Assembly: GCA_964291395.2 (NCBI GenBank)
Contig: OZ219856.1
Span: 1,056,001-1,120,000 of the forward strand
Origin: Alphaproteobacteria bacterium
GTDB lineage: Bacteria; Pseudomonadota; Alphaproteobacteria; UBA2966
Direction: 5' to 3'
DNA: 64,000 bases
The notes below the pieces were generated by a model. The model saw only the letters and a list, made by a program, of their open reading frames with translations, was not told the DNA's origin and made no database searches. Shown here piece after piece: positions 30,011 through 36,132 of the stretch. Position numbers and translations under genes: made by a program. The stretch's first letter is position 1. Each line of letters opens with the position of its first letter.

Positions 30011-30247
30011 CTGGATTAGCGGGCCGGGTGCAATTTCCCAGCGGACTCGACCGCGAATCATACGGGATGTGACCGCGGTTCCTTAGCATTTGACCGTTCA
30101 GGGCTGGGACCGCGCTTGCCTCGCGGTTACGGCCATCTTCGCGATCATGACATCGAGTGTACCGCCGAGCACGGCGGGCAACCCGTCGCCGCAAACAGAG
30201 GGAATGCGGGCTTGATATTAGTAGGCCATTGGCCTATATATGTGGGG

Positions 30248-30529
30248 ATGGAGTTCGAATGGGACGAGGCCAAGAACAGTGCCTGTTTCGAGCATCGCGG
30301 CTTCGACTTCGCCTATGCCGTCCGGGCGTTCCTCGATCCGCACCGGATCGTCGCGCAGGACCGCCGGCGGGACTATGGCGAGGACCGCTACCGGCTGCTC
30401 GGCACGGTCGACGGGCGCGTGTATGTCGTCGTCTATACGGTGCGGGGTTCGGCCGTCCGCATCATTTCGGCTCGCAAGGCCAACCGGGAGGAGGTCGCGG
30501 ATTATGAGCACAACGCGCATCAGGATTGA
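30248..30529 (+). CDS. BrnT family toxin
   Basis: MEFEWDEAKN...RGFDF...DYGEDRY...VVVYTVRG...RIISARKAN. Confidence 0.92.
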   Translation: MEFEWDEAKNSACFEHRGFDFAYAVRAFLDPHRIVAQDRRRDYGEDRYRLLGTVDGRVYVVVYTVRGSAVRIISARKANREEVADYEHNAHQD

Positions 30530-30839
30530 CCCGGACGATCCGTCCACCCTGCCCGAGGGGCGGATTGACCCAGCCAGGGTGGACGCCACCACCGAGGCGG
30601 AGGTCGCGGCGCAGGAGCGGGAGGACGAGGCTGAGGCGATGCAGGACATGGCGCGGTATGCGCGGCGGGTCCGGCGGCGGCTGGGGCTTTCCCAGACCGA
30701 GCTGGCTCGGCGCATCGACGTGTCGCACGAGACGATCCGGAACTGGGAGCAGGGGAAGCGCTGCCCGACCGGGGCGGCGCGCGCCCTGTTGCGGGTACTC
30801 GACAAGGCGCCGGAGACCGCGCTCCGCGTGTTGACCTGA
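30504..30839 (+). CDS. Xre/Cro-type HTH antitoxin
   Basis: RRRLGLSQTELARRIDVSHETIRNWEQGKRCPTGAARALL; overlaps the toxin 3' end. Confidence 0.88.
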   Translation: MSTTRIRIDPDDPSTLPEGRIDPARVDATTEAEVAAQEREDEAEAMQDMARYARRVRRRLGLSQTELARRIDVSHETIRNWEQGKRCPTGAARALLRVLDKAPETALRVLT

Positions 30840-31039: not shown

Positions 31040-32257
31040 CTATTCCGCGGCGGCGGCTTGGATCTTGGCCATTGCCGCGTCCGCCTTGGCGAAATCCTCC
31101 TCGCCGAAGCCGTAGAGATGTCCGCCGCCCATGAAGATGTCTGCCGCCATCTCCCGGCCCACGTTGGCGATAAGGTTGCTCGAGACGTTCGGAAAGTTGG
31201 AATCGAAGTGGGGATAGTCGGTCGAGATGCACATGCGGTCGGCGCCGATGAGGCTCGCGGTCGCCGCGATCTCCGGCTCGCTTCCTTCGACCGCGGCCCA
31301 GCAGTTGCGCCGGAAATACTCCTTCGGAGTCAGCGAGAGATAGGGAGCATGAGAGTCCCGGTACTGCGGGTAGTCCCACTCGATCCGGGTGAGGATTCCG
31401 GGAACCCATGAGTTCTGCGCCTCCAGGAAGGCCACGCGGAGGTTGGGGTAGAACTCGAACACGCCGCCGATGATCATGGCGATCAGTGCCTGCTGCATCT
31501 CGATCCAGTGGCTCGCGACGTGTCGGTAGAACCGGTTCTCGCCATAGATCTCGTTCATGTGGGAGTTCCAGACGCCGGTGCCCTCGTGAAAGCCCCAGGT
31601 GACGTCGAGTTCCTCGTGCAGCGCGTAGAGGTCGTTCCAGTAGTTGGAATGCCAGAAGTGACCCTTGATCAGGTTCGGCCGTATCATCGATCCTGCGGCG
31701 CCGAGTTCGGTGACACAGCGAACCAGTTCCTTGCAGGCGAGATTGACGTCGTGGATCGGCAGCATCGCCGCGAATTTCAGCTGATCCGGGCTGTACTGGC
31801 AGAACTCGTGGATCCAGTTGTTGTAAGCCTCGCACAGCGCCACGGACATCAGCGGGTCCATGTCCTCGACGGCGATGATGTTGAGGCCCGTGGTCGGGAA
31901 CAGCACCGCGATGTCGATCCCTTCCAATTCCATGCCCATGACCTGCGCCACCGGGTCAAAGCCTCGCTCGATGGCGAAATTCAGGCGTCCGCTCTCGGCC
32001 GAGCGAGAGCCCGACAACGGTTGCGATATCGATTTCGTCTTGTCCAAGCCGGTCGTGCGCTTACGGTATTTCTGGATTTCCCAGTCGATGAAGTTGGGTT
32101 TGCCGTCGATGACGATCATGCCCCGCTTGAACTTGCCGTCGGCGCCCACCGGCAGGGTCACCCGATCCCGGAACCCGGGATCGAGATAGCGATGGAATAG
32201 ATCCTCGGGTTCGGTGACGTGCATGTCGCAATCAACGAAACGAAGCCCTTCCTTCAT
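31040..32257 (-). CDS. Amidohydrolase_2 family metal-dependent hydrolase/decarboxylase
   Basis: VDCDMHVTEP, AYNNW, GFHEG, AFLEAQ, STDYPHFD. Confidence 0.9.
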   Translation of the reverse strand: MKEGLRFVDCDMHVTEPEDLFHRYLDPGFRDRVTLPVGADGKFKRGMIVIDGKPNFIDWEIQKYRKRTTGLDKTKSISQPLSGSRSAESGRLNFAIERGFDPVAQVMGMELEGIDIAVLFPTTGLNIIAVEDMDPLMSVALCEAYNNWIHEFCQYSPDQLKFAAMLPIHDVNLACKELVRCVTELGAAGSMIRPNLIKGHFWHSNYWNDLYALHEELDVTWGFHEGTGVWNSHMNEIYGENRFYRHVASHWIEMQQALIAMIIGGVFEFYPNLRVAFLEAQNSWVPGILTRIEWDYPQYRDSHAPYLSLTPKEYFRRNCWAAVEGSEPEIAATASLIGADRMCISTDYPHFDSNFPNVSSNLIANVGREMAADIFMGGGHLYGFGEEDFAKADAAMAKIQAAAAE

Positions 32258-32503
32258 GACGGTTTCCTCGCAATTCGGCTTTGAGATGCGTCCAAGTCGC
32301 TCTGTCTGCGGACCGCTGCCGGGGCGGTACGATCCGGCAAAGGGTACCAGACGGCGTCCGTTCATCCAAAGATTCATGGAATTCGCTTGTGAGCGGACAC
32401 CGGGGGCATTTCGGGTTCCGTTGACACCCACGAACCATCGGCGATGATTTCGTTCGAATCGGATCCCGGGCAACTCCGACGAACCATGATGAGGTGAATC
32501 GTC

Positions 32504-33085
32504 ATGCCGAGAATCAGACTGGTGGAACCTGAGGAAGCGACCGGAAAGGTCAAGGAGATCTTCGACGAGATCGCGGAAGCCGAAGGCTACGTTCCGGCAC
32601 TCTTCCGCGCCTATGCGCTGTTCCCTCCGCTTCTCGAAGCCAACTGGCAGCAGCACAAGGCGTTGATGTTCGAAGGACAGCTGTCGTTCCGTCTCAAGGA
32701 AGCGATCATGCTGACCGTGGCTGACGCGAACCGGTGCCCCACGTGAATTAGCTACCATTCCGGTGCCCTCCGTGAAGAGGGTGTTGACGAAGACGAAATC
32801 GAAGCGGTGATCGCGGTGGACGGGGAGAAACTCGCCGAAAAGGAAGCGGTCATACTGGAGTTCGCCCGCCGGTCGACTCTCGAACCGGCGGACATCACCG
32901 ATGAGGACTTCCAGAAGGTCAAAGACGCCGGCTACAGCGACGCGGAGATCATGGAGGCGCAATACGTTATGGGTCTCTCGACTCTGGAGACCAAATTCTG
33001 CGATTCCCTTGCGTTCGTTCCCAGCCGTCCCGAAGTCCTTGCGGCGCAGGCGGCACCGACTCCTTACCGCACAGTCGGCACCTGA
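32504..33085 (+). CDS. AhpD/carboxymuconolactone-decarboxylase-family peroxidase-like protein; candidate selenoprotein (CxxU, TGA at 32744-32746)
   Basis: ORFs 32504-32746 and 32807-33085 share a frame. Read-through gives 193 aa containing KEAIMLTVADANRCPT-U-ISYH, the AhpD N-x-C-x2-C-x3-H motif with TGA at the second Cys. Confidence 0.85.
32762..32785 (+). promoter_or_regulatory. Candidate bacterial SECIS hairpin
   Basis: GGTGCCCTC-CGTGAA-GAGGGTGTT: 9-bp stem including G-U pairs, 6-nt loop with G at position 2, loop starting 24 nt after the UGA. Confidence 0.65.
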
Positions 33086-33181
33086 TCGTTCCCGACATGC
33101 GGCATTGCCGCCGAGCGGGCGAGTCGTCCCGCAGCGACGGCCGGCCGCCCCGCAGAGATCGTTCCTCTTTGACGGTCGCCG

Positions 33182-34177
33182 TCAGGCGACGCTCTCGTAG
33201 CGGCGAAGGACTGTGGACTCGAGCCATTCGAGGAGTTCGTGGTCGAAACCCGTTGGCCAGAGCACGAAGTAGCGCACGCCGATGTCGACGAGTTCGTCGA
33301 GGCGCGCCAGGGTTTCGGCCTTCGTGCCGATCATGTAGTCGGCCTCGACGTCCTCGAACGGCATGTTCGAGATCTTGGACAGGCGCTCGCGAGCTTCCTT
33401 CCTTTCGGTGTCGTCTTCGGAGCTCAGGAAGACGATGTTGAGGTGCGCGAAGGTGATGTCTTTCGGGTCGCGGCCGTACTCTTTCGCATACTGCGTCAGG
33501 TGCTCCCAGTCCTGCTTCATCAGTTCCCGGTTGGTCACCGCTCGCGAGATCCAGCCGTCGCCGATTCGTGCGATACGACGGAGAACCCGCTCGACCTGCG
33601 GCGAATACACCGTGTCGGCGTGGCCCGCCGCGCTGCCGCCGGCGAACCAGACGGGGATCTTCGGCTGCACCGGTAGCGGCTCGATCGTGATGTCCTTGAA
33701 CTGCCAGAATGCGCCTTCGTAACTGATGTTGGGTCCGGACAGGAGTTTGTTGACGATTTCGACGGTCTCTTCGGTTCGCGCGCCGCGCTCGCTCTTGGGA
33801 ACTCCGCTGACCTCGAACTCCTGGTCCCACCATCCGACACCCGCCCCGAAGATCACGCGGCCGTTCGATAGGTAGTCCATGGTTCCCAACGTCTTCGCCA
33901 GGATGGATGGCGTTCGGATGGGTGTGACGAGTATGGAAGTGCCGATCTTCACACGCTCGGTCACGGCCGCCACCGCGGACAGAACCGTCAGCGGCTCCAG
34001 CCACGCCGTCCGATAGATCGGGGGCGCCACGACCAGGTGATCGATGACCCAAAGGCCATCGAAGCCCATCGCCTCGACCCGTTGCGCGAATTCGGTGAGT
34101 CGCGGAAGCGTAGGGTCGTTGTCTTCATAAGCGCCTCCGTAAAACGTCGGCAGCACGATCCCCAGCTTGACAGGCAT
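33182..34177 (-). CDS. LLM-class flavin-dependent oxidoreductase (luciferase-like)
   Basis: GFDGLWVIDHL...EPLTVLSAVAAVTERVKIGTSIL...LSNGRVIFGAGVGW. Confidence 0.92.
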   Translation of the reverse strand: MPVKLGIVLPTFYGGAYEDNDPTLPRLTEFAQRVEAMGFDGLWVIDHLVVAPPIYRTAWLEPLTVLSAVAAVTERVKIGTSILVTPIRTPSILAKTLGTMDYLSNGRVIFGAGVGWWDQEFEVSGVPKSERGARTEETVEIVNKLLSGPNISYEGAFWQFKDITIEPLPVQPKIPVWFAGGSAAGHADTVYSPQVERVLRRIARIGDGWISRAVTNRELMKQDWEHLTQYAKEYGRDPKDITFAHLNIVFLSSEDDTERKEARERLSKISNMPFEDVEADYMIGTKAETLARLDELVDIGVRYFVLWPTGFDHELLEWLESTVLRRYESVA

Positions 34178-34260
34178 GAACTCTCCTCCTGACTTCGGCC
34201 TGAAGCGCCGATCTTCGCTCCGAGACGCTTCCGGACGGGATTTCGGCGTGGGCACCCTGC

Positions 34261-35121
34261 TCAATAAGGGGTGTCGCCCTCGATGGTGGTGCGGTGCATG
34301 TGGCGCCGGTGGCGGCGGTCATAGGGCGCGACGCGGTGCATGGTGCAGCGGTTGTCCCACATGAGGATGTCGTAGGGGCGCCACTTGTGTGTGTAGATGT
34401 TCTCGGGGCGTGTCGCATGGGCGACGAGTTTGCGAATAAGGGCGCGGCCTTCCTCCGGATCCATGCCGACGATGCGGTCCGTGTGCGACTGGCTGACATA
34501 GAGGGATTTGCGCCCCGTTTCGGGATGCGTACGGATCACGGGGTGCACGACGTCAGGCGTCTTGGTGAGCTGTGCCTTCGACATCCGAATGCGTCCGTCG
34601 ACGCTCGTGCGCCGGCCTTCGGCAACCCGATTGACCGCCGTCATGCCTTCTAGTCGCCCTTTCGCAGCTTGAGGCAACGTGTCGTAGGCACGGGTCATGT
34701 TCGTGAACAACGTGTCGCCGCCCGTGGGCGGTACCTGCAGCGCGTACAGAATGGACCCCAAGCTCGGCCGTTTCATGTAGGCCAGATCGGAATGCCAATA
34801 CTTGCCGGCATCGGCGAGGCCGATAAGCTCGCCCTTTTCCCGCTTGTTCGACACCCGCAGGATCTCGGGGTGTCCCGGCAGCAGGAATTGGTCAAAGACG
34901 TGAGTGGCGAGGCCGCCGAACCGGCGGCTGAAGGCGATATGCTGCTCCGGCGTGATGTGCTGATCCCGGAATAGAATCAGGGAATGTTCCAGGAAAGCGC
35001 CGTGGATCGCGCGGAAAGTGATCTCGTCCATCGGCCGGGCGAGGTCGACGTCGAAAAGCTCGGCGCCCAAGGCATCCGAGAGGGGCCGCGTTTCGATCTT
35101 CATGACTTCACGCAGTGCCAC
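34261..35121 (-). CDS. TauD/TfdA family 2-oxoglutarate/Fe(II) dioxygenase
   Basis: WHSD, GGDTLF, HPVIRTHPETGRKSLY, WDNRCTMHR. Confidence 0.93.
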   Translation of the reverse strand: MALREVMKIETRPLSDALGAELFDVDLARPMDEITFRAIHGAFLEHSLILFRDQHITPEQHIAFSRRFGGLATHVFDQFLLPGHPEILRVSNKREKGELIGLADAGKYWHSDLAYMKRPSLGSILYALQVPPTGGDTLFTNMTRAYDTLPQAAKGRLEGMTAVNRVAEGRRTSVDGRIRMSKAQLTKTPDVVHPVIRTHPETGRKSLYVSQSHTDRIVGMDPEEGRALIRKLVAHATRPENIYTHKWRPYDILMWDNRCTMHRVAPYDRRHRRHMHRTTIEGDTPY

Positions 35122-35190: not shown

Positions 35191-36132
35191 TCACGAGTCG
35201 GGTTGGGACGCGCCGGGCCGCGGCAACACGGTCGAGATGCCGGCGACGAGCAGGAGGAGGGCGGTGACTTCCATCCAACCCAGGGGTTCTCCCAATGCCA
35301 GGGCTCCGATGACGAGACTCACGACCGGGACCGCGAGGACCGAGAGGGACGCCACCCAGGCCGGCACCATGTCGACGATCTTGAACCAGAGCCAGTAGGC
35401 GGCGGATACCCCCAGAAACGTCGCGTAAGCTGTACCCGTCCAGGCAAGCACCGAGGCACGTTCCATGGTGACGAAGTCCGGAATGGCGAGCACGATCAGC
35501 GGGATGCCGCCGAGCAGGAACTGCCAGCCCACGAGGACCAGCGTGGGCGCCTGCCAGGGAATCCTCTTCATCAAAACCGTCCCGACGGCCCACGAGAACG
35601 CCGCCACCATCATCGCCGCGATGCCCCGCCAGTCCCCTTCGATCATGTTCAGGTTTCTGAACAGCAGGATTCCGACGGCGCACATTCCGAGGGCCAGGCC
35701 GATCCACTTGCCGAGACTCGGGGTTTCGCGCAGCGCGACGGTGCTGATGAGAAACAGCCAGAGCGGGAAGGTATATGCGGCGATCGCGGTGTGTCCCGCC
35801 GTGATGTAAGACAGCGCTAGGCCCGTGAAATACAGCCATAGCGTCGCGTTGAAGAGGGCGGCCGGCAGAATCCAGCGGCGCTCGGTAGCGTCGAGGCGCA
35901 GCGATTGACCGGCGAGTACGGCGAGAACGAGCACCAGAGCGCCGCCGCCGATGCCGCACAAGCCGCGTACGACGAAAATGGGAATCTCGTCGATCGCGAC
36001 CTTCGTCAAGGGCCAGCTGTTGCCCCAGATCAATGTCAGCAGCACCAGCAGCAGAAGACCGCGGGCCGGAAGACGCGTCGGCTCGGGTGCCGAGTCGGGG
36101 GTGCCCTGGTGTCGACCCGTCGCGTCCGCCAT
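35191..36132 (-). CDS. DMT/EamA family transporter
   Basis: 313 aa hydrophobic protein, paralogous to 918-1856 (EIPIF, VASLSVLAVP). Confidence 0.9.
   Translation of the reverse strand: MADATGRHQGTPDSAPEPTRLPARGLLLLVLLTLIWGNSWPLTKVAIDEIPIFVVRGLCGIGGGALVLVLAVLAGQSLRLDATERRWILPAALFNATLWLYFTGLALSYITAGHTAIAAYTFPLWLFLISTVALRETPSLGKWIGLALGMCAVGILLFRNLNMIEGDWRGIAAMMVAAFSWAVGTVLMKRIPWQAPTLVLVGWQFLLGGIPLIVLAIPDFVTMERASVLAWTGTAYATFLGVSAAYWLWFKIVDMVPAWVASLSVLAVPVVSLVIGALALGEPLGWMEVTALLLLVAGISTVLPRPGASQPDS

Follow-up and report, generated by a model that had tools for sequence, protein, structure and literature searches.

An AhpD-like gene with an in-frame TGA, very probably a selenocysteine codon, in an uncultured alphaproteobacterium

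Described AhpD-like selenoproteins and the new member

AhpD-like proteins with a C-x-x-U motif, in which U is selenocysteine (Sec), were assigned to COG2128 and first reported from the Sargasso Sea in 2005, with 27 sequences and figures of their selenocysteine insertion sequence (SECIS) elements in the available part of that report (PMC1088965). In the Global Ocean Sampling (GOS) data, the available text of PMC2398784 counts AhpD-like families among the most abundant, with 299 selenoproteins and 902 Cys homologues for AhpD-like 1 (COG2128, CxxU) and 70 for AhpD-like 2 (pfam02627, CxxU). The family is also tabulated in a 2022 review (PMC9312934, in extract) and is given a separate page in the database described in a 2026 paper (PMC13326102, in extract). 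Here we describe a gene belonging to this family in a stretch of 64,000 nucleotides (nt) from an uncultured alphaproteobacterium (assembly GCA_964291395.2, contig OZ219856.1, positions 1,056,001 to 1,120,000), called the window below. The best explanation of the locus as a whole, to which we give a probability of about 0.9, is a 193-residue AhpD-like protein in which an internal UGA is recoded to Sec by SelA, SelD and SelB with the help of a hairpin. Since the CxxU AhpD-like family was described in 2005 and is catalogued, the gene adds a member to it and does not found a new one. The original prediction for this locus, made from the letters of the sequence, had mentioned Sec-containing AhpD-like proteins from environmental data, rightly, as the first two of these sources indicate.

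With the AhpD-like selenoproteins of COG2128 (YciW-type; Zhang, Gladyshev) the protein shares the CMD/AhpD-like domain, the putative Sec in the second position of C-x-x-U, the widespread Cys homologues and a stem-loop, here a predicted one, just after the UGA with a G in a small apical loop. These likenesses are known by description; the window lineage differs from its relatives in having C-P-T-U, and so lacks the nearly invariant Tyr that precedes the second, catalytic Cys in 54 of 61 relatives. The solved members of TIGR01926 (6k40, 2oyo, 2pfx, 3c1l and 2prr) show the same all-alpha fold of about 190 residues and the NxCxxC...H motif, but they carry Cys and not Sec, and by their PDB titles their substrates are mostly uncharacterised. 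In the same genome a second AhpD-related gene, matched by NF041238 (AhpD_rel_CFYUT, hereafter CFYUT), also has C-x-x-U followed by x3-H and a CGUGA loop 24 nt past the UGA, whereas its product is a two-domain protein of 388 amino acids, and the window protein, with 19.4 bits against the cut-off of 175, is no member of that model. From M. tuberculosis AhpD (TIGR00777; PDB 1gu9), with which it has in common the CMD fold, C-x-x-C-x3-H and the upstream Glu, the window protein is separated by a score of 15.9 bits against the cut-off of 191.95, by a Foldseek E-value of 0.26 to 1gu9_A and by the lack of an adjoining ahpC. Its nearest Cys homologues are about 38-43% identical to it, and C-P-T-U proteins perhaps form a new small lineage, about 40% identical to the nearest Cys relatives.

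One reading frame across the TGA

Translation of 32504-33085 on the forward strand gave one frame of 193 codons, from ATG 32504 to the terminal TGA 33083-33085. The sole internal stop is the TGA 32744-32746 at codon 81, after which 112 codons run without stop or frameshift, and the two open reading frames (ORFs) obtained with translation table 11, 32504-32746 (80 amino acids) and 32807-33085 (92 amino acids, GTG start), share this frame. The residues flanking U81 are KEAIMLTVADANRCPT-U-ISYHSGALREEGVDEDEIEA, the wider peptide context is ADANRCPT-U-ISYHSGALREEG, and the motif reads N-R-C-P-T-U-I-S-Y-H. All features are collected in Table 1.

Profile and fold analyses were made on the readthrough protein. 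In Pfam, CMD (PF02627) matched residues 42-106, a segment that spans the TGA, with an E-value of 1.9e-13 and 50.6 bits (cut-off 23). In NCBIfam the 'peroxidase-related enzyme' model TIGR01926 covered residues 2-156 with 89.6 bits (cut-off 81.8), and the AhpD core domain TIGR00778 (ahpD_dom) scored 40.5 bits against 27.8. Besides the true AhpD and CFYUT models mentioned above, NF053654 GroundWater_YciW (42.3 against 310) and NF041047 GSU3128 (26.9 against 110) remained below their cut-offs; as all the dedicated AhpD-type '(seleno)protein' models do so, automatic pipelines can be expected to keep missing the gene. None of the 9 families that NCBIfam listed at E<=0.01 was a PcaC model, and no pca genes were found among the scanned neighbours of the gene. 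By sequence, the best solved relative was 6k40_A, an AhpD-like alkyl hydroperoxide reductase of D. radiodurans (E 3.1e-20, residues 11-176), whose alignment pairs NRCptCisyH with NRCvyCavsH. The AlphaFold2 model, built from an alignment of 62 sequences, was a single all-alpha domain with a predicted local distance difference test (pLDDT) of 93.0 and a predicted template modelling score (pTM) of 0.86, in which helix 79-91 begins at the CxxU motif and crosses the join of the two ORFs. Foldseek superimposed it on 6k40_A with template modelling (TM) scores of 0.81/0.84 over 179 columns, and on 2oyo, 2pfx, 3c1l and 2prr with 0.77-0.84. The profiles, the alignment, the model and the structural matches together mean that the two table-11 pieces are the halves of one domain, and either half by itself forms no domain.

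By homology to these proteins, the active-site motif E...N-x-C-x-x-C-x3-H is satisfied by E66, N76, C78, U81 and H85. The conservation of these columns was counted over 61 of the top-ranking full-length homologues, aligned to the query and taken from an exhaustive HMMER search that returned 2810 homologues at E<=1e-3; it was used instead of a word-indexed search, which returned 2 hits and was uninformative. Asn76 was kept in 53 of the 61, and the column of U81 was Cys in 57 (for the other three positions see Table 1). As His85 lies downstream of the TGA, its translation requires TGA readthrough.

The pieces exist as separate entries in protein collections. The exact 80-residue N-terminal fragment is present in a public collection, and its 90% cluster holds 13 distinct variants, 94-99% identical, on 57 contigs from several sources, all of them exactly 80 amino acids long and terminating in ...NRCPT. 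The downstream piece is represented by P0004 (89 amino acids, 93% identity) and P0048 (80 amino acids, 64%, C-terminal), and P0140 (102 amino acids) is a downstream fragment that begins directly past the U column of the homologue L044. Such entries agree with an alternative in which the locus makes two products, an 80-residue peptide and an independently translated 92-residue protein from the GTG at 32807; this is how automatic annotation presents it. Insertion of Sec in bacteria is inefficient, and some termination at the UGA is to be expected. However, codon conservation extends through the 60 nt between the two pieces, which include the near-invariant His85 (57/61), the solved homologues 6k40 and 2oyo are single chains over residues 11-177, the model folds as one compact domain in which a helix crosses the join, and by eye no Shine-Dalgarno-like sequence was seen 5' of the GTG, all of which makes two independent products very improbable. 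The original prediction had proposed a single 193-residue frame with one TGA at 32744-32746, an AhpD/CMD motif and an annotation split by the stop; translation confirmed the first, PF02627, TIGR01926 and the motif columns bear out the second, and the 80- and 89-residue fragments in the collections correspond to the third.

The TGA as a selenocysteine codon

The codon that pairs with Cys in most homologues is TGA in further sequences. Among 80 loci from species genomes, 77 had Cys at this column, 2 had TGA (L043 and L044) and in 1 the motif was not found (L046); among 56 metagenome loci there were 41 with Cys, 2 with TGA (L142 and L169) and 13 in which the motif was not found. L043 belongs to the orthologue in a second species of the same genus, G005 (L024/L043), which is syntenic, 88% identical in protein and has TGA at the matching codon; nucleotide identity is 86% in the gene and 88-89% in the flanking Amidohydro_2 and luciferase-like genes. 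L044 is a homologue of 39% identity which also has TGA at the Sec column. We calculated the ratio of nonsynonymous to synonymous substitution rates (dN/dS) against G005 by the Nei-Gojobori method (NG86). It was 0.099 (dN 0.031, dS 0.31) in the 80 codons 5' of the TGA and 0.114 (dN 0.055, dS 0.48) in codons 82-176 on its 3' side, or 0.150 when the variable C-terminal tail was counted in. The values on both sides being similar, the downstream and the upstream region experience the same purifying selection.

These data bear on the possibility that the gene is a nonsense pseudogene, dead or decaying, in which a Cys codon TGC or TGT mutated to TGA. One base change is enough for this, Cys is what most homologues have at the column, and 4 of the 5 same-genus genomes are without a close orthologue, so the genus can do without the gene. 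We consider a pseudogene very unlikely all the same, and largely refuted by the purifying selection downstream: the TGA is kept in the second species with practically the same dN/dS after it (0.11) as before it (0.10), the 112 downstream codons are free of stops and frameshifts, the 13 variants on 57 contigs stop at one codon, a homologue of only 39% identity has the TGA too, and the genome holds a complete Sec machinery.

This machinery consists of selA, selB, selD and the gene for tRNA-Sec (selC), all over curated cut-offs and all on C1, the contig of the gene. The selA-selB-selC cluster (C1:1022644-1026097, reverse strand) is situated some 62 kb upstream of the gene and about 30 kb before the start of the window, and selA and tRNA-Sec also occur in each of the 5 other genomes of the genus. 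Two peculiarities were observed among these genes. The selD forms the C-terminal portion of an 809-residue fusion with Pyr_redox_2 (NADH-dehydrogenase-like; G000:C1:2559293-2561722, L010:100-2529, where G000 is the genome of the window), and belongs to the Ndh-SelD type of fusion mentioned in the available text of the GOS paper (PMC2398784). In G005, selA is matched in two consecutive frames (G005:C1:2288909-2290265; model positions 2-240 and 239-447), which could be a frameshift or an error of long-read assembly; the tRNA-Sec of G005 is intact.

The genome was also screened for further Sec clients, by TGA codons between flanking frames with a G+C content at third positions of at least 0.78 and in a CxxU or UxxC context. 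The screen is non-exhaustive, and missed the gene of the window, but it gave three further genes with one in-frame TGA each: CFYUT, with the motif C-F-Y-U-T, and two PrdB/GrdB-family (PF07355) paralogues. The latter have P-[IV]-U-P-x-C-T-R and G+C-rich hairpins 3' of the UGA, and their best NCBIfam model is TIGR04483, whose cut-off they miss by a wide margin, the scores being also far under the PrdB and GrdB equivalog cut-offs. Formate dehydrogenase was tried as a client and rejected: the TIGR01553 hits have no in-frame stop, and in-frame TGA is absent from all formate-dehydrogenase-like molybdopterin genes of G000, which leaves this selenoproteome without FdhA-Sec.

UGA could also be read by other means than Sec, through near-cognate insertion of Trp or Cys or a genome-wide reassignment of TGA. 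Near-cognate readthrough of UGA at a low level does occur in bacteria. Yet of the 1246 open frames in the genome with 500 codons or more, 733 end in TGA, as does the gene of the window, so there is no genome-wide reassignment; in the relatives a catalytic Cys occupies the column, which is the typical site of Sec/Cys exchange; and the sel genes, the tRNA-Sec, the three additional TGA-bearing members of known selenoprotein families and a hairpin at canonical distance leave this alternative extremely unlikely. A single-base error of assembly or sequencing is hardly credible, for although this is a metagenome-assembled type of genome with a contamination rating of 9%, the identical TGA stands in the independent assembly of another species (L024/L043) and truncation occurs at the same codon in the 13 variants on 57 contigs from several sources. 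Even taken together, the four alternatives are improbable.

We therefore return to TGA 32744-32746 as a codon that very probably encodes Sec, as judged from sequence comparison. The original prediction had arrived at the same reading and had suggested looking for a Cys/TGA pairing among homologues (Cys in 57/61; TGA in L043 and L044), for relaxed selection after the TGA as a mark of a pseudogene (not seen, dN/dS 0.11 with the TGA kept in a second species) and for selA, selB, selD and tRNA-Sec in the genome (all present on C1). The Sec-decoding system that it had supposed in this alphaproteobacterium is thus a complete gene set, and its inference on the UGA is supported by the pairing, the conservation, the machinery and the other clients.

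The downstream hairpin and the points against

The hairpin has its 5' arm at 32762-32770 (GGTGCCCTC) and its 3' arm at 32777-32785 (GAGGGTGTT), with the apical loop CGUGAA at 32771-32776, positions 2-3 of the loop being G and U; 24 nt separate the UGA from the first base of the loop. Position, loop, distance and the G and U are as originally predicted. The conserved core has 6 base pairs, and four added pairs, mostly G-U, lengthen the stem to 10 in this genome. Neither Rfam nor ARAGORN gave any match in the whole 64-kb window, which for bacterial SECIS elements is uninformative at gathering thresholds.

It is the comparison with relatives that would give the hairpin its weight. In G005 the core GCCCUC/CGUGAA/GAGGGU is unchanged while nearby synonymous sites differ. 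In L044 it is GCCUUC/CGUGCU/GAAGGC at an identical offset, with C-G replaced by U-A and G-U by G-C; the compensatory change of C-G to U-A combines a nonsynonymous Leu-to-Phe substitution in one arm with a synonymous GAG-to-GAA substitution in the opposite arm. Over these three sequences 20 of 21 cells were paired, against 43-62% when the 3' partner was slid. The CFYUT hairpin, AGGCUC/CGUGA/GAGCCU, has its loop likewise 24 nt past the UGA; it was left out of the pair counts, as its 5-nt loop puts the 3' arm out of register. The shared loop type in the window gene and CFYUT is consistent with the recognition of similar loops by a single SelB, although the products of both genes are distantly homologous and both have L-R-E at the hairpin. 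A scan of metagenomes found no close orthologue (best 36% identity), and the SECIS alignment stays at 3 sequences.

Several observations weigh against the reading of the gene as a selenoprotein with peroxidase function, and the first of them concern the hairpin. It is no more stable than its shuffles (z-score of -0.10 in 67 nt and -0.69 in 47 nt). With loose rules for a bacterial SECIS (stem of at least 6 base pairs, distance of 16-37 nt, loop of 3-14; the distance and loop limits are reportedly those of the bSECISearch description) hairpins were present after 29% of 2492 coding positions drawn at random in frame and after the same share of 2590 genuine TGA stops of this genome, which is 64% G+C. 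One scoring as well as the 6-base-pair core was found after 19.9% of random positions, and one as good as the full version of 10 pairs after 2.2-2.9%. The lower stem, mostly G-U, is absent from G005, and the hairpin overlaps the conserved codons A-L-R-E-E-G, so its conservation is partly at the protein level. As for covariation, which the original prediction had proposed to check, the stem is kept in all three TGA-bearing sequences and has one compensatory pair; with n=3 this statistically proves nothing, and 153 of 500 shuffles equalled it. The hairpin alone is weak evidence.

The Sec form is also rare. Among 61 relatives an internal TGA was found only in G000 and G005, and in a class-wide sample of 401 genomes, 78 of which had a hit at E<=1e-12, only in G000; these counts leave uninspected the TGA-flagged hits G025:C223 and G003:C38 and the hits flagged for TAA or TAG (2 among the relatives and 4 class-wide). 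In another flagged hit, G023:C49, the TGA was the terminal stop on inspection. To this must be added the missing close orthologue in most of the genus. Completeness of the assembly is rated at 98.1% and its contamination at 9.0%, but contig C1 holds both the gene and the sel genes. Lastly, the scan of neighbours found no AhpC-type partner adjoining the gene, and a peroxidase function would be ascribed to it by analogy with the family.

The distribution of Sec and Cys was examined on a tree of 52 rows, 6 of them Sec-bearing and 46 top-ranked Cys homologues, fused and fragment hits being left out. On the best tree, most of which is weakly resolved, 4 changes are required to explain the Sec forms, and the well-supported branches call for at least 2. 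These sequences give no support to a single origin of Sec in the family, and the changes agree with the dynamic Sec/Cys exchange that the available part of PMC1794560 announces.

Proposed function, neighbouring genes and significance

The active site would be composed of Glu66 ... Asn76-x-Cys78-Pro-Thr-Sec81-x3-His85. In the mechanism that we propose, SelA would make Sec-tRNA(Sec) with selenophosphate from SelD, and the SelB-GTP-Sec-tRNA(Sec) complex would bind the loop 32771-32776 and insert Sec at codon 81. The second Cys serves M. tuberculosis AhpD as its nucleophile towards AhpC, and Sec would occupy that position here. Sec81, at the N-terminus of helix 79-91, may thus act as the nucleophile, Cys78 being the resolving residue through a selenenylsulfide. 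By analogy with the same enzyme, His85 and Glu66, the latter presumably equivalent to its proton-relay Glu, may serve as a proton relay. On such family analogies a thiol/selenol oxidoreductase is the most likely identity of the product, with hydroperoxides or an oxidised partner protein as its likely substrates.

Taking the motif into account, one may also think of the C-P-T-U lineage (window, G005, P0048 and perhaps L044 with C-D-V-U) as a functionally shifted, selenol-dependent reductase, not a peroxidase, that works with the conserved neighbours. If this were true, the function could be, for example, reductive dehalogenation or C-S/C-X chemistry, as in the CMD-fold debrominase Bmp8, which was among the Foldseek matches of the model. 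The missing Tyr is compatible with such a shift, which we nevertheless regard as unlikely.

The neighbours in question are, in the window, an Amidohydro_2 enzyme upstream and, downstream, a luciferase-like monooxygenase, a TauD-family dioxygenase and an EamA transporter; for the shifted reductase the first is taken as a decarboxylase/hydrolase and the last as an exporter. The spacer between the AhpD-like and the luciferase-like genes is about 460 nt in G005 (L043:3550-4011) and about 124 nt in the window (33053-33177), and the C-terminal tails of the two AhpD-like proteins diverge. Farther upstream, the BrnT-type RNase toxin domain is overlapped by an ORF reaching up to 30839 (forward strand) whose C-terminus looks like a helix-turn-helix antitoxin, and judging from the sequences 30116-30839 is probably a BrnT/BrnA pair.

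Table 1. Positions of the gene, its elements, its neighbours and the Sec-related genes of genome G000 (plain numbers are positions in the window).
Feature	Position	Strand	Basis
AhpD-like/CMD gene, predicted selenoprotein with Sec at codon 81	32504..33085	+	translation, profiles, fold model
In-frame TGA, putative U81, second position of the C-x-x-C/U redox motif	32744..32746	+	homologue Cys, TGA-bearing relatives
Cys78 codon TGC, opens the CxxU motif	32735..32737	+	Cys in 57/61 homologues
His85 codon CAT, histidine of C-x2-U-x3-H, 3' of the TGA	32756..32758	+	His in 57/61 homologues
Glu66 codon GAA, 12 residues N-terminal of Cys78	32699..32701	+	Glu in 50/61 homologues
92-residue GTG-started piece, C-terminal half of the domain, no independent gene	32807..33085	+	P0004 fragment
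Putative Shine-Dalgarno-like GAGGTG, 6 nt 5' of ATG 32504	32492..32497	+	read by eye
Sigma-70-like promoter match, TTGACA-16 nt-GATGAT	32421..32448	+	10/12 consensus match; 1 found, shuffles mean 0.1
SECIS-like stem-loop	32761..32786	+	folds, comparison with G005, L044 and CFYUT
Conserved hairpin core, 6 bp	GCCCUC 32765-32770 / CGUGAA 32771-32776 / GAGGGU 32777-32782	+	
selA	C1:1024742-1026097	-	573.6 bits
selB	C1:1022802-1024688	-	425.6 bits
tRNA-Sec (selC)	C1:1022644-1022734	-	70.7 bits; ARAGORN tRNA-SeC, anticodon TCA
selD	C1:2560694-2561611	+	309.6 bits
NF041238 AhpD_rel_CFYUT gene, motif C-F-Y-U-T	G000:C3:977958-979124 (L181:559-1725), TGA C3:978699		450.5 bits against 175
PrdB/GrdB-family (PF07355) gene 1	G000:C1:2343250-2344482, TGA 2343715	+	
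PrdB/GrdB-family (PF07355) gene 2	G000:C1:679388-680686, TGA 680227	-	
Amidohydro_2 enzyme	31040-32269	-	neighbour, conserved
Luciferase-like monooxygenase	33182-34264	-	neighbour, conserved
TauD-family dioxygenase	34261-35121	-	neighbour, conserved
EamA transporter	35191-36132	-	neighbour, conserved
BrnT-type RNase toxin domain	30116-30529	+	PF04365, 6.6e-27

What is known of Sec decoding and of the AhpD-like selenoprotein family is unchanged by this gene. In this genome and in its relatives a redox enzyme is mis-annotated as pieces of 80 and about 90 amino acids, and the truncated form has been carried over into no fewer than 13 sequence variants, found on 57 contigs. The predicted selenoproteome comprises at least 4 genes, two AhpD-type and two PrdB/GrdB-like, a profile that resembles the aerobic/marine selenoproteomes of the GOS analysis as given in the available text (PMC2398784). 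The practical yield is a correction of the annotation and a small selenoproteome for an uncultured genus of Alphaproteobacteria that very probably uses selenium.

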